Virus record (IMG/VR): IMGVR_UViG_3300027608_000010
Length of the DNA stretch: 64,000 nucleotides
Origin: a virus
Lineage: Duplodnaviria; Caudoviricetes
Strand: one strand, 5' to 3'
Shown: positions 32,644 to 37,033 of the stretch, in pieces
How the letters are laid out: the number at the start of each line of letters is the position of its first letter
How positions within the stretch are numbered: position 1 is the stretch's first letter
Notes under the pieces: model-generated
What the model was told of the DNA's origin: nothing
What the model saw: only the letters and a program-made list of their open reading frames with translations
Database searches by the model: none
Made by a program: the position numbers and the translations under genes

Positions 32644-35427
32644 TTAAGACCGTGTATAGGTTAATATTTCATCGTGTATGTTCTTAGTTTGGTTTGAAAT
32701 TGATATTAGAGTGTCAAATTTATCAGACAATAATGATATCATGTTCATTACTACATCATTACTTCCACTAGCAATTGCCGGAGTTGGTGCAGTTTTGTTC
32801 AATCCCATTTGATCCATTAACTCTTGTTTGTAGTCATCTACACTTGACTTTTTCACATCCTCAAGTAAGGCATGCATTTGTTTTTCATTCCAAACGCTTT
32901 CTTTTTTGCCATGCAACATTACCGGGAAGCCATCTTCCGGCCCACTAAATAACCCACCTTGTCTAGCTACTTCTAAGTGAAAGTGGCCACCTTTATTTTC
33001 AGGATTATCTCCTGCAGCACTATCAGAAAAATATTCATCTAGAACAGTAGTTGCGCCTAAATCTTTTAGTCTTTCTTTAATTGCAGCCGCTTCTTCCGCA
33101 TCGGAGGGAGGTTTAGCTAATGCATAATCTAATGCTAGTCCTTTGGCATGTTTTGAACCTGGTTTTTTTGTTCTATGATAATCATCATTTAATGCAGTAA
33201 ATGTTCCTCCTGGAAATGCACTAGATAGTCTGTCTGCTAAAGCTAATAACTTAGGATCAACTTCACCACTTGTTCGTTCTTTTTTTTGTGCATCCGATCC
33301 AAAATTTAATTTTTTCAGAATTGCTGCTGCCGAATCACTCTTATCAGTTTTAATTTCTGCACCGCTTCTTCTTATACCACCCTGAGCACTGGCTCTTTGT
33401 GCAGTAACTAGTTCATTGGCTGGTGCACCTGTATAATCAGTATTCCAAGAAGTAGCACGTCCTTTTGGTGCAATTGATGCTTTATCAATATCGTTTTTGT
33501 TAATAACACTTCCTATTTCACCTCGAGTTTTGCTAATTTCTTCTTGTTTTTTAAGTAATTCTGCTTCTTTCTTTTGTATTTCTGCTTGTCTTTTTATAGA
33601 TGTAGCCTCTCTTATAACATTAACATCACCATTTTTTATTTGTTCTTCTTTTTTCTTCGTAATGGCTTTGTCATTATTTAAATTTGCTAATTCATTTTCT
33701 AATTTTTGTTTCTGTTTTGCTTTTTCCTCTGCTGACAATGAATTATCACCCGCAACTTTTCTGATTTCTGCTTGTTTAGTATCAATTTTGTCTTGATTTG
33801 CTTTTAACACACCTTCAATTACTTGTTTTGCAAATTCTTTATCAGCAGAAGATACTTCAGTACCATTTTTCAGTCTATCAATGTCAGCTTCTAATTTAGA
33901 TTTTTCTGTTTTTAAAATTGTTAAATCATTTATGCGGTCAGAATTATCTTTGAATCCTTCAGATAAATTTGTTTTCCCTAATCCAATATATGGACCAAAT
34001 TGGTCAATCATTTTAGCTAGCATTTTACTAAATTGATATAATACAGTATTCAGTCCACCAAACACTTTAAGAACACCTTCTCCTGCGCTAAAAAGTGCTC
34101 TATCCTTTGCGATAGCCATACGTCTAGATTCTTGTTCCATTTCTAATAATTCTGCTTGTCTTTTATCATATTCTCGTTTTTTATCTTCAACAGTTTGCGC
34201 GGCGTTTGCGGCTTTGATGCCTGTTAGACCCAAAACTCTCATCTTATAATCATTGTCACCGACAACGCCATCCATACCAGTACCAAGTGCATTAATTGAA
34301 TTTTTATGAATTTCTAAGTTTTCCTCTGCACCTTTTTGTATTTCACCGAATGATTCATTTAGAGTTTTTGTACCCTTAATAAAACCAGAAAATGATGGGC
34401 CTATTGTATTTCTAGTCATTTGTACTACTTGAGCACTTGCCTCACCTACTACTTTACCACCGTTAATAATAAACTCAGTAGCTCCAACACCAAATGTTTT
34501 ACCATACTTAATTATACCAGCAGCCATGAACTCATTAGCCTTTTCGGCTTCATTGGTGTTATTAATAAGATCCTGTTTTTTAAGATCACTTACATATTTT
34601 GCCCATCGATATTCATACATTTGCTGCTCTATCACTTTAGCAGCCTCATCTCTACTAACTCCGGTAAGTTCTTGTAACTCTTTCAATGTGGTCATGTATT
34701 TCATTGACCCTTCTTGAATCTGAGCAGTAGTCATGTTTTGAGAATTACCTAATTTAGCTTGGATATTCATGTATCCAGCAACTCCCATTCGTAACCCTTG
34801 CAAGTCAAGTCCTAATTTTTGAGCTTGGGCTTCATATTGCTCTCCGGGTTGAATCATCCCTTGAATAACATTAACATATTTTTTCAGACCACTAGTAACG
34901 CCACCACCAAAGAGAACTAATGAAGGAGATACTGAATCTAACACTTTCTTGAATTGGTCAGCTGATTCTGAAGTAAGACCTACTTTATTTAAGTTTGCTA
35001 TTACTGTATCTAAACTACCACTAAGGTCACCTGCGTCAGCAAAATCCCGATACGCTTTAGTCAATGCGTCATTTTGCTTTAGACTGGCGGCGGCAACATC
35101 CCCAAAGATTTTTATCAAGCCTCCGGCAGCTATACCAAGAACACCAAAATTCTTTCCAACTTCCCAAGCTGCATTACCAGCAGCACTTACTGCACCTGCG
35201 TACTTTGATGTACCCTCAGTAGCAGAAAACATTGCCTTTGTATAATCAATGGCCGAACCTCTAATTTGCTGTGCGGCATTATTGAATGAAGATTGAATTT
35301 CATTAGCAGCCTGGCGTTGAGCATCGGCGTAATCACCTACCCCTCGCTGGCCGTGTTGGAATGAGTTGGATAGCTGTGCAAATGATTGCATCAACTGTTG
35401 AACTTCTTGCTGATTTAAATCTGCCAT
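32644..35427 (-). CDS. Tape-measure-like protein with C-terminal LAS/peptidase M15-like domain
   Basis: 927 aa, mostly helical and Ala/Gly/Lys-rich. SKHAKGLALD (H-x6-D) and HFH motifs; GGLFSGPEDGFPVMLHG tail typical of TMP ends; adjacent to the gp26/gp51-like pair. Confidence 0.7.
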   Translation of the reverse strand: MADLNQQEVQQLMQSFAQLSNSFQHGQRGVGDYADAQRQAANEIQSSFNNAAQQIRGSAIDYTKAMFSATEGTSKYAGAVSAAGNAAWEVGKNFGVLGIAAGGLIKIFGDVAAASLKQNDALTKAYRDFADAGDLSGSLDTVIANLNKVGLTSESADQFKKVLDSVSPSLVLFGGGVTSGLKKYVNVIQGMIQPGEQYEAQAQKLGLDLQGLRMGVAGYMNIQAKLGNSQNMTTAQIQEGSMKYMTTLKELQELTGVSRDEAAKVIEQQMYEYRWAKYVSDLKKQDLINNTNEAEKANEFMAAGIIKYGKTFGVGATEFIINGGKVVGEASAQVVQMTRNTIGPSFSGFIKGTKTLNESFGEIQKGAEENLEIHKNSINALGTGMDGVVGDNDYKMRVLGLTGIKAANAAQTVEDKKREYDKRQAELLEMEQESRRMAIAKDRALFSAGEGVLKVFGGLNTVLYQFSKMLAKMIDQFGPYIGLGKTNLSEGFKDNSDRINDLTILKTEKSKLEADIDRLKNGTEVSSADKEFAKQVIEGVLKANQDKIDTKQAEIRKVAGDNSLSAEEKAKQKQKLENELANLNNDKAITKKKEEQIKNGDVNVIREATSIKRQAEIQKKEAELLKKQEEISKTRGEIGSVINKNDIDKASIAPKGRATSWNTDYTGAPANELVTAQRASAQGGIRRSGAEIKTDKSDSAAAILKKLNFGSDAQKKERTSGEVDPKLLALADRLSSAFPGGTFTALNDDYHRTKKPGSKHAKGLALDYALAKPPSDAEEAAAIKERLKDLGATTVLDEYFSDSAAGDNPENKGGHFHLEVARQGGLFSGPEDGFPVMLHGKKESVWNEKQMHALLEDVKKSSVDDYKQELMDQMGLNKTAPTPAIASGSNDVVMNMISLLSDKFDTLISISNQTKNIHDEILTYTRS

Positions 35428-35438
35428 ATATTTTAAGT

Positions 35439-35446
35439 TATAAATA
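35439..35446 (+). promoter_or_regulatory. T4-type late promoter TATAAATA
   Basis: Exact T4 late consensus in the divergent intergenic region upstream of 35504. Confidence 0.65.
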
Positions 35447-35503
35447 CTTTCGGTACTAATTGTATTTAGTATTCAGAATTTTACCATTTATTTAGGAATC
35501 CAT

Positions 35504-36331
35504 ATGACTACAGACAATCCATTAAGACAGTTTTTTCGCCGTCCTGCACTATATTTAAGACTACCTAGCGGGGGAAAAGGATACACAAGTGATGCTATTG
35601 ATTTTCCGGATAATAGCGAATTACCTATCTATCCCATGACTGCAATAGATGAAATAACGAGTAGGACACCGGATGCATTGTACAACGGGGTAGCAATAAC
35701 TGAAATCATTAAGAGTTGTATCCCTGCAATTAAAGATCCATGGCAAGTATTAAATATTGACTTAGATCCTATATTGATCGCTATTCGTGTTGCTACTAAC
35801 GGACAACTTATGGAAATCGATTCAACTTGTCCAGAATGTAATGAGGATAGTAAATTTGACGTTGATCTAGTAGCAATGCTTTCTACCTTCACTTCCGGAG
35901 ACTACGATACCCCTGTAAAAATTGATAATTTGATTATAAAATTCAAACCATTATCTTATAAAGATGTAAACAAGATAAGTGAAAGACAATTTGAAGTACA
36001 AAAACAATTTATGCAGATTGAAGCAATTACTGATACCGTAGTGAAAGACGCCAAGACAAACGAAATAATAAAAATATTGAATCGGTTGACTGGAGAAATC
36101 ATAATAGATGCTATTGAATATATTAAAACACCTGAAGACACTGTGTTTGATAAGGACTTTATTAGAGAGTTCTTAGATAACTGTGATAAGAATACTTATA
36201 ACACGGTAAGAGATAAAAATATTAGCTTACGTAAAGAGAATGAGGTTAAACCATTAGATGTTACTTGTTCACATTGTAGCCATAAACATAAACAAACATT
36301 CAATATCAATATAACTAATTTTTTCGATTAA
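35504..36331 (+). CDS. gp26: Baseplate hub assembly / tail-assembly chaperone (T4 gp26-like)
   Basis: 275 aa. NPLRQFFRRPALYLRLPSGG, YPMTAIDEI, two CxxC pairs (CPEC, CSHC). Confidence 0.8.
   Translation: MTTDNPLRQFFRRPALYLRLPSGGKGYTSDAIDFPDNSELPIYPMTAIDEITSRTPDALYNGVAITEIIKSCIPAIKDPWQVLNIDLDPILIAIRVATNGQLMEIDSTCPECNEDSKFDVDLVAMLSTFTSGDYDTPVKIDNLIIKFKPLSYKDVNKISERQFEVQKQFMQIEAITDTVVKDAKTNEIIKILNRLTGEIIIDAIEYIKTPEDTVFDKDFIREFLDNCDKNTYNTVRDKNISLRKENEVKPLDVTCSHCSHKHKQTFNINITNFFD
36319..36325 (+). promoter_or_regulatory. Candidate -1 programmed frameshift heptamer T TTT TTC
   Basis: In-frame X XXY YYZ one codon before the stop; the -1 frame is open from 36319 into the next ORF. Confidence 0.6.
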
Positions 36332-36366
36332 GGCTTCTTCGTCTTAGTTCCGAAGCGATTAAGCAG

Positions 36367-36555
36367 ATGATAGATGACATGGAACGTCAGTGCTTAGATA
36401 TTAAAAAATCAGCATTGAAAATGTCTTGGTATATGAGAGGTGGGGCAACTTATGAAGATATACTTAATATGAGTGGACCTGAAAGAAATGCGATATCTAG
36501 TATTATTGAAAGTAATTTAGAAACTACAAAGAAAAGCAAATTACCATTCTTTTAA
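36367..36555 (+). CDS. gp51: gp51-like hub assembly protein; possibly expressed as a frameshift extension of gp26
   Basis: 62 aa from ATG, MSWYMRGGATYEDILNMS..ER motif; the frame is open upstream to 36319; no clear RBS. Confidence 0.65.
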   Translation: MIDDMERQCLDIKKSALKMSWYMRGGATYEDILNMSGPERNAISSIIESNLETTKKSKLPFF

Positions 36556-36559
36556 TCGG

Positions 36560-37033
36560 AAAGGTTCATTTATCATCTTGTTTTTTCTTTGGGGAGAAGA
36601 ACTTACGTTCTTCTAAGAACTCGTTATCACTCGTTCTTATTTTTACGGTTATATATTTTCTATAACTGTTTTTATCTAATAACTCATTGGATATATCATG
36701 CCGATTAGAAGCCATGGTAGTGCTATTTAAGCACTACCAATGGAATTATGCCATGACCGTCATCCTTGCCATTTTTACCCGAACAATCAACGTCTTTATG
36801 TTATTGTTCGCCACCGGTTGCCCTGTAGGGTTTGTTGGTCTGTAGTTGAATTACGCACTCTAGTGTTTCATTCTGCAACGCATGTTCTATAGCATCAAAA
36901 TGGAGTAGCTATAGACTCATTGAAGGTTCGCTTTGACGAGAGCCTTCTCGGTGTTCCATGTTATTGCTAACATGCATACTCCAGAATCTGACGGCACAGC
37001 ACAATCTGTACAATCTCAAGGAGGCCCGACAAC
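36560..37033 (-). ncRNA. Candidate structured non-coding RNA of unknown class
   Basis: About 480 nt with no credible ORF; many perfect hairpins, two with GNRA loops on the minus strand; a possible pseudoknot. Confidence 0.45.

Follow-up and report, generated by a model that had tools for sequence, protein, structure and literature searches.

We analyzed, by computational means, the gene for a gp26-like baseplate-hub assembly protein and the reading frame that leads on from its 3′ end in IMGVR_UViG_3300027608_000010, a 64,000-nt stretch of DNA from an uncultured freshwater (lake) phage (the window, from here on, is this whole stretch). The gp26-like open reading frame (ORF) encodes 275 amino acids (aa) and closes with AAT TTT TTC GAT TAA, which places a slippery heptamer, T_TTT_TTC, in the correct 0-frame register one codon ahead of the stop (Table 1). 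In the −1 frame, a TAA abuts the heptamer on its 5′ side, so that translation starts farther upstream are unable to feed this frame; from the heptamer on, it is open for 78 codons, beginning FFRLRLLRLSSEAIKQMIDDM..., up to a stop at 36553 to 36555. The predicted products are a short form of 275 aa and a long form of 350 aa, composed of 272 residues of the gp26-like protein and the 78 residues encoded in the −1 frame. The heptamer, the course of the −1 frame, and both product sizes had been put forward in an original prediction made from this DNA, and our reading of the sequence confirmed them. We also agree with its remark that the ATG of the “gp51-like” ORF has no clear ribosome-binding site: this ORF of 62 aa, from ATG 36367 to 36555, is contained within the −1 extension, and by eye there is no Shine-Dalgarno-like sequence 5′ of its start. 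Of the 75 in-frame XXXYYYZ heptamers found in window ORFs of at least 100 aa, none but the one described here has a −1 frame open for at least 60 codons or for at least 40 codons past the 0-frame stop. Taken with the sequence comparisons presented below, these features make it highly probable that programmed −1 ribosomal frameshifting on T_TTT_TTC yields the two predicted forms.

Table 1. Features at the gp26-like locus, in window coordinates
Feature	Positions	Strand	Remarks
Putative tape measure protein gene	32644..35427	−	927 aa; divergent from the gp26-like gene, between the gp26-like gene and the portal gene
T4-type late promoter-like motif TATAAATA	35439..35446	+	Read directly; ∼58 nt 5′ of the gp26-like ATG
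AGGA, Shine-Dalgarno-like, for the gp26-like gene	35493..35496	+	Read directly
gp26-like baseplate-hub assembly gene	35504..36331	+	275 aa; 0-frame short product
−1 frame stop TAA	36316..36318	+	Immediately 5′ of the heptamer
Slippery heptamer T_TTT_TTC	36319..36325	+	X_XXY_YYZ register; 0-frame codons TTT TTC (Phe-Phe)
−1 frame extension	36319..36555	+	78 codons and stop; C-terminal tail of the predicted 350-aa long form
Candidate downstream RNA stems	36326..36356	+	Minimum-energy 9-bp stem at 36326-36349; alternative GCTTC 36333-37/GAAGC 36352-56; both weak
0-frame stop TAA of the short form	36329..36331	+	

The slippery site is conserved well beyond the window. We assembled a jumbo-type set of 60 loci, comprising the window, 10 isolated jumbo phages, and 49 IMG/VR contigs (the latter at 32 to 60% identity), with protein identities of 26 to 60% for the set; the closest isolated relatives, at 26 to 32% identity, are the jumbo myophages PA5oct, Atu_ph07, RaK2, 121Q, 7t3, CBB, GAP32, and XacN1. 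Conservation of the heptamer across homologs, which the original prediction had named as a check, proved to be complete: all 60 jumbo-type loci carry an in-frame heptamer at an invariant Phe-Phe (TTTTTTC in 58 and TTTTTTT in 2), from which the −1 frame is open for 72 to 81 codons, and the 0-frame tail that follows the Phe-Phe is variable, with 1 to 13 aa of unrelated residues. Outside the close relatives of T4, the heptamer is also kept in 8 of 8 other T4-like lineages, which brings the total to 68 of 68 loci of the frameshift type, all in the same register. These lineages include the cyanophages S-WAM1 and P-SSM2, Agrobacterium phage OLIVR5, Cronobacter phage LPCS28, Vibrio phage VH7D, and Aeromonas phage AS-sw, and variant heptamers stand at the homologous site of Rhizobium phage AF3 (T_TTT_TTG, Phe-Leu in the 0 frame; L068:901-907) and Pseudomonas phage pf16 (T_TTT_TTT; L069:901-907). 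Across the relatives, the −1 extension measures 58 to 81 codons. At the nucleotide level, the wobble base ahead of the Phe-Phe is always T, although its codon encodes N, S, H, R, A, Y, D, or T, and the first Phe codon is always TTT; calculated from each gene's own codon usage, the joint probability of both over 26 lineages is ∼1e-17, a figure that treats the lineages as independent and thus overestimates significance. T4 serves as a natural control, since its gene 26 retains the Phe-Phe with the nonslippery sequence G TTC TTT, so that the amino acids alone do not demand the heptamer; T4 gene 26 is not followed by a −1 ORF, and T4 and Aeromonas phage avDM7 both lack the arrangement, with gene 25 directly 3′ of gene 26. 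As judged from this comparison, the constraint is on the nucleotides and not on the amino acids alone.

The peptide encoded in the −1 frame is conserved from its first residues (FFR.RLL....EI...IK......WYMRGG....ER....N.ETTKK..PFF, with F1, F2, and R3 invariant). This bears out the expectation, raised with the original prediction, that the −1 frame is coding upstream of the gp51 ATG. Two findings that would have spoken for an independent gene were also looked for in the homologs: no stops separate the heptamer from the downstream ORF in those examined, and the downstream Met is not conserved. In the jumbo-type loci, the first Met of the −1 frame, if there is one, is found anywhere between positions 3 and 38, often within the conserved WYMRGG, and yet residues 1 to 16 are conserved; the −1 frame of PA5oct is without any Met, and that of AS-sw has none before codon 44, beyond most of the conserved region. 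Because conserved −1 residues thus lie 5′ of any Met, they can be translated only by entering the frame at the heptamer. The cyanophage-type extension is matched by 582 phage records, most of them over nearly its full length starting at the Phe-Phe of the heptamer, and the corresponding −1 ORF is annotated in databases as a separate gene, “gp51, baseplate hub assembly catalyst.”

Many relatives also have strong hairpins 3 to 7 nt 3′ of the heptamer, as in loci L039 (−19.7 kcal/mol, z −4.95) and L012 (−16.4 kcal/mol, z −2.5). Over 35 distinct loci, the 55 nt 3′ of the heptamer have a mean ΔG of −11.6 and a mean z of −1.23, compared to −5.2 to −8.3 and 0 to −0.28, respectively, in four control windows taken from these genes (Mann-Whitney test, p 1.5e-6, without correction for relatedness). 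The pairing partners vary by clade, with GCUUCU/AGAAGC in some and GGAUCU/AGAUCC in others, and the 3′ arm falls at different codons, which fits selection for structure and not for sequence. At the RNA level, contigs assembled from the metatranscriptomes of four lake runs extend across the heptamer and show no indel there, and one of them (35503-36570) covers both frames; such contigs are uninformative on minority transcripts, transcript ends, and expression level.

The body of the protein is a member of a known family. The 275-aa protein matches Pfam PF12322 T4_baseplate (E 1.8e-13; 51.2 bits, with a gathering cut-off of 24.5) over profile positions 37 to 218 of 219, as well as phrog_150, “baseplate hub” (E 1.1e-15). 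In the alignment of gp26-like proteins, T4 gp26 included, C109, C112, C255, C258, F273, and F274 are invariant, that is, two CxxC pairs and the Phe-Phe. The AlphaFold model of the 275-aa body is of mixed alpha/beta type with the two CxxC pairs (predicted local distance difference test, pLDDT, 88), and the extension is modeled as a helical hairpin-like unit (pLDDT 87). Fold searches with the body model (PDB and a wide VIA search) returned only generic helical matches, and those with the extension model (BFVD and PDB) gave matches no better than expected for helical hairpins; these null results carry no information on whether the folds are new. A profile of the extension compared to PDB sequences yielded coiled-coil noise only. 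In PHROG profile searches, the window extension has a weak match to phrog_18291 (E 0.005) and none to phrog_634, “baseplate hub assembly catalyst”; its type is longer and diverged, with 78 codons compared to 58 to 67 in the cyanophage type.

PF12322 also provides the link to T4, where it matches both gp26 (residues 1 to 206) and gp51 (residues 1 to 201 of 249), so that gp26 and gp51 are paralogs. The tail of gp51 (about residues 202 to 249) and the extensions of S-WAM1, OLIVR5, and LPCS28 all match phrog_634, and the gp51 tail aligns with the cyanophage-type −1 extensions from the junction Phe onward. The label “gp51-like” given to the downstream ORF by the original prediction is therefore apt in part: the extension is the counterpart of only the C-terminal tail of T4 gp51, a protein whose body is itself a gp26 paralog. 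This correspondence is direct for the cyanophage-type extension, through phrog_634 and the alignment, and moderate for the window type, which hhalign aligned with the gp51/cyanophage type over a Y..D..M.P.ER motif (probability 59%, E 9e-5); run against whole T4 gp51 as a single sequence, the window extension gave an uninformative 2.4%. Because position and slip site are identical, we take the window-type extension to be a likely homolog of the gp51 tail.

Natural fusions point in the same direction. A search of 1.84 billion representative proteins with a hidden Markov model of the extension yielded 505 matches. Most are small called ORFs, but among the 150 best matches at least 25 are proteins of 319 to 351 aa that carry the extension at their C terminus, as in-frame fusions, and their N-terminal part is PF12322. 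The junction of these fusions reads xF-R.(K/R)(I/L), with a single Phe and no T run. On contig L070 (411-2389), a short PF12322 paralog of 294 aa is followed directly, in tandem, by a long one of 351 aa; the short paralog ends ...NFFTDNK and has AAT TTT TTC, but its −1 frame is closed, and the long paralog is without a T run. The same tandem arrangement of short and long paralogs is found on L071 (3-1116), and both contigs look like a frameshift gene resolved into two genes. By the same comparison of sequences, T4 gp51 would be the in-frame equivalent of the predicted long form, and T4 gp26 would be the equivalent of the short form.

In the mechanism that we propose, most ribosomes would read AAT TTT TTC GAT and then stop, giving the short form. 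A minority would slip one base back on T_TTT_TTC, the P- and A-site tRNA-Phe re-pairing on UUU UUU, and would stay in the −1 frame to 36555, giving a long form made of the shared body and a 76-residue helical tail after the common Phe-Phe. The predicted tryptic junction peptide of the long form is ...QTFNINITNFFR, and the short form would end ...NFFD. Frameshifting would in this way set a fixed, low ratio of long to short form from a single gene, the short form being comparable to T4 gp26 and the long form to T4 gp51, which is needed only in catalytic amounts. By analogy with the G/GT proteins of lambda, we infer that the pair may have a chaperone role; under a scheme like lambda G/GT or P2 E/E+E′, holding the tape measure or the hub would fall to the common body, and recruiting another tail component would fall to the C-terminal tail.

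Several observations weigh against this mechanism. The stem GCTTC/GAAGC, which the original prediction had described as weak, exists, but the 40-nt fold of the window is itself weak (−9 kcal/mol) and not significant (z −1.27), and its best, minimum-energy stem begins directly after the heptamer, at +1; relatives L046 to L054 are likewise without a clear hairpin. In P-SSM2, S-WAM1, VH7D, and AF3, an ATG lies 3 to 6 codons after the heptamer, and separate initiation may occur there. The gp51 tail and the type of extension found in the window are linked only moderately, and the case for the long form as a whole is built from sequence comparison and assembled RNA contigs. Finally, insertion of one U by the RNA polymerase would give an identical protein, and assembled contigs are blind to minority variants. 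This last process, transcriptional slippage, would add an extra U to the T6 run in some transcripts, which would then be translated normally into the same 350-aa fusion (FF-R...); the site is indeed a homopolymer run, two lineages have T7, and the RNA contigs are compatible with a minority of +1U transcripts, the majority being T6 without an indel. Productive transcriptional slippage in bacteria, however, usually needs runs of about 8 to 9, and T6 is shorter than that. The run measures six T in 58 of the 60 jumbo-type loci and is never lengthened, even though most of these genes use TTT more often than TTC for Phe; this argument is partial, as the C that ends the run is also the first base of the invariant Arg codon of the −1 frame. 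The enrichment of hairpins 3 to 7 nt downstream, moreover, fits a stimulator of ribosomal slippage. On balance, we infer that the slippage is ribosomal and consider the transcriptional route unlikely.

Still less probable is an arrangement of two separate genes, in which the 62-aa ORF would be translated from its own ATG or by reinitiation, no fusion would be made, and the heptamer would be kept for its Phe-Phe only. Many records do annotate the downstream ORF on its own under the gp51 name quoted above, and in some lineages an ATG follows soon after the gp26 stop. Yet the ATG of the window lacks a Shine-Dalgarno-like sequence (by eye), the Met column is not conserved, and PA5oct and AS-sw have no Met from which the conserved part of the −1 frame could be started; where the first Met falls inside WYMRGG, as it often does, the 16 to 38 residues ahead of it are conserved nonetheless. 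The wobble T and the TTT codon are kept beyond the needs of a Phe-Phe, which T4 retains without them, and both the in-frame fusions and T4 gp51 mark the tail as part of a protein with a PF12322 body. Chance, or a single ORF split by a homopolymer indel in the assembly or by gene decay, has next to no probability. Errors are frequent in homopolymer runs, and both parts are indeed fused into a single ORF in a related clade, but the junction of that clade is different and without a T run, the same split in the same register occurs in 68 independent loci, finished isolate genomes included, and the split is present in DNA and RNA contigs from many lake samples. Conservation over 68 loci and the RNA contigs effectively refute this explanation. 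Programmed ribosomal frameshifting thus remains the reading that we prefer.

To place the frameshift in an evolutionary perspective, we built a tree of 46 PF12322 bodies by maximum likelihood, in which the midpoint root serves only for drawing. T4 gp26, T4 gp51, and avDM7 gp26 form one supported clade that is nested among frameshift lineages, T4 gp51 and avDM7 gp26 being long branches, and eleven in-frame long forms make up another supported clade, sister to the subclade of the window. Read most simply, these sequence relationships suggest an old frameshift that gave way, on at least two occasions, to two genes derived by duplication. A wider proposal, to which we give even chances, is that the −1 frameshift at the C-terminal Phe-Phe of PF12322 would be ancestral for the whole T4-like superfamily, by which we mean the jumbo RaK2/121Q/PA5oct-type phages, the marine cyanophages, the Schizo-T4 vibriophages, and the Pootjesviridae. 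If so, T4-type tails would have their missing pair of tail assembly chaperones in gp26 and gp51, gp51 would represent the long form fixed as a gene of its own after duplication, in at least two independent switches, and hundreds of genomes would misannotate the trans-frame tail as a small “gp51.”

The surroundings of the gp26-like gene are shared with its jumbo relatives, in which the common gene order comprises the major head protein, the portal, a large virion protein divergent from the gp26-like gene, and recombination genes; a blastn search of the locus against our phage collection found no close relative. The position of the divergent 927-aa gene of the window is occupied in RaK2, 121Q, PA5oct, CBB, and GAP32 by a virion structural protein of 720 to 800 aa. 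A protein-language-model search placed the 927-aa protein nearest to tape measure clusters (0.93), and this proximity, together with its position, gives a lead, and only a lead, to a tape measure protein; Pfam and PHROG searches with it were without a match, and BLASTP found no similarity to RaK2_00088 or T4 gp29. The protein also lies near VanY-type peptidase clusters and has a GGHFHLE stretch near residue 810; one possibility is a tape measure that carries a cell-wall peptidase at its C terminus. In pf16 and LPCS28, an annotated tail tube gene is directly followed by the gp26-like gene, the extension, and a large gene, a succession that resembles the canonical order of tube, chaperone, and tape measure; for the large genes that adjoin gp26 in other lineages, these two included, no match to a tape measure family was found. 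A tblastn search with the partial tube protein of LPCS28, a distant T4-like relative, found nothing in the window, and a search for a tail tube gene in the nearest record, a 22-kb fragment, gave no match. As to the virion, the gp26-like protein of CBB (CBB_250) is annotated as “structural protein,” and the PA5oct homolog, unlike its neighbors, has no note of detection by electrospray ionization tandem mass spectrometry (ESI-MS/MS); retention of the short form in the virion may differ between phages or data sets.

Ahead of the gp26-like gene, the 76-nt divergent intergenic region contains TATAAATA, which matches the T4-type late promoter consensus and which we regard as a putative promoter; a scan for promoters and terminators returned nothing in excess of shuffled expectation. 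In three of the four lake runs, positions 35462-35515 are not covered by the RNA contigs, a pattern that would be consistent with separate divergent transcripts. The RNA contigs of a co-occurring strain (runs X16 and X18) diverge right after the stop of the extension, from 36556, and this strain carries a hairpin and T-run terminator, AAAAAGGACTCTAGGAGTCCTTTTT, whereas the window's own sequence has no such terminator; the ∼480 nt 3′ of the extension (36560-37033) are without a long ORF. A second strain (runs X15 and X18; 36281-36392) shows ∼10% differences over 112 nt, with the T run unchanged; its A>G change at 36354 is synonymous in the −1 frame and, in the GCUUC/GAAGC stem, replaces an A-U pair with G-U.

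Long-tailed phages are characterized by a conserved frameshift in their tail assembly chaperone genes, and the T4-type phages are, to our knowledge, the notable group without one so far. A recoding site in a phage tail assembly gene is therefore of a known kind; the PF12322 family, in which we predict it here from sequence, appears not to have been linked to recoding before. No published report of a frameshift in a gp26/gp51-family gene was found in the full-text literature, the genome papers of PA5oct, RaK2-like phages, CBB, XacN1, and Atu_ph07 included and subscription journals being outside its coverage, and the database records of jumbo and other T4-like relatives annotate two separate genes. 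If our interpretation is true, T4-like phages have an equivalent frameshift system in an unrelated protein family, and recoding and gene duplication are interchangeable routes to a pair of short and long forms, with at least two independent switches between them. The annotation of a core gene pair would then be corrected in several hundred sequenced phages, abundant marine cyanophages included.

One of the closest known systems is gpG/gpGT of lambda, part of the conserved −1 frameshift in the tail assembly chaperone genes of long-tailed phages that Xu, Hendrix, and Duda reportedly described in 2004. As in lambda, a tail-assembly gene would have a −1 slip, predicted in our case, on an in-frame heptamer close to its 3′ end, an abundant short form would be accompanied by a rare, C-terminally extended one, and the gene adjoins a putative tape measure gene. 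Unlike in lambda, the body of the window protein is about twice as large and has CxxC pairs, and the putative tape measure gene is divergent instead of downstream; Pfam, PHROG, PDB, and BFVD searches revealed no similarity to gpG/gpT-type chaperones beyond generic helical fold matches. In P2, E/E+E′ frameshifting reportedly occurs at TTTTTTG (Christie et al., 2002). P2 shares with the phages studied here a contractile tail and a U-rich heptamer, and AF3 has exactly T_TTT_TTG at the homologous site, but the protein family is unrelated, and in P2 the two genes are flanked by those for the tube and the tape measure. The small phrog_634 “gp51” ORFs of cyanophages and T4-like phages resemble the window extension in that they stand directly after gp26, in the −1 frame, with the same heptamer upstream; they differ in being annotated as independent genes and in being shorter (58 to 67 codons compared to 78). 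In T4 itself, both gp26 and gp51 are assembly chaperones of the hub, and gp51 is required yet absent from the particle (PMC3004832). T4 and the window have in common the PF12322 family, the pairing of a short with a long form, and a long-form tail that, in gp51, aligns with −1 extensions after the same Phe. As the original prediction correctly stated, however, T4 encodes gp26 and gp51 separately, in two divergently transcribed paralogous genes without a frameshift, and a product of an internal start, 26′, is annotated there, whereas the window has one gene from which both forms would be made by the predicted recoding. Should this prediction hold, the catalytic need for T4 gp51 would find a simple explanation, in that gp51 would stand for the rare long form.

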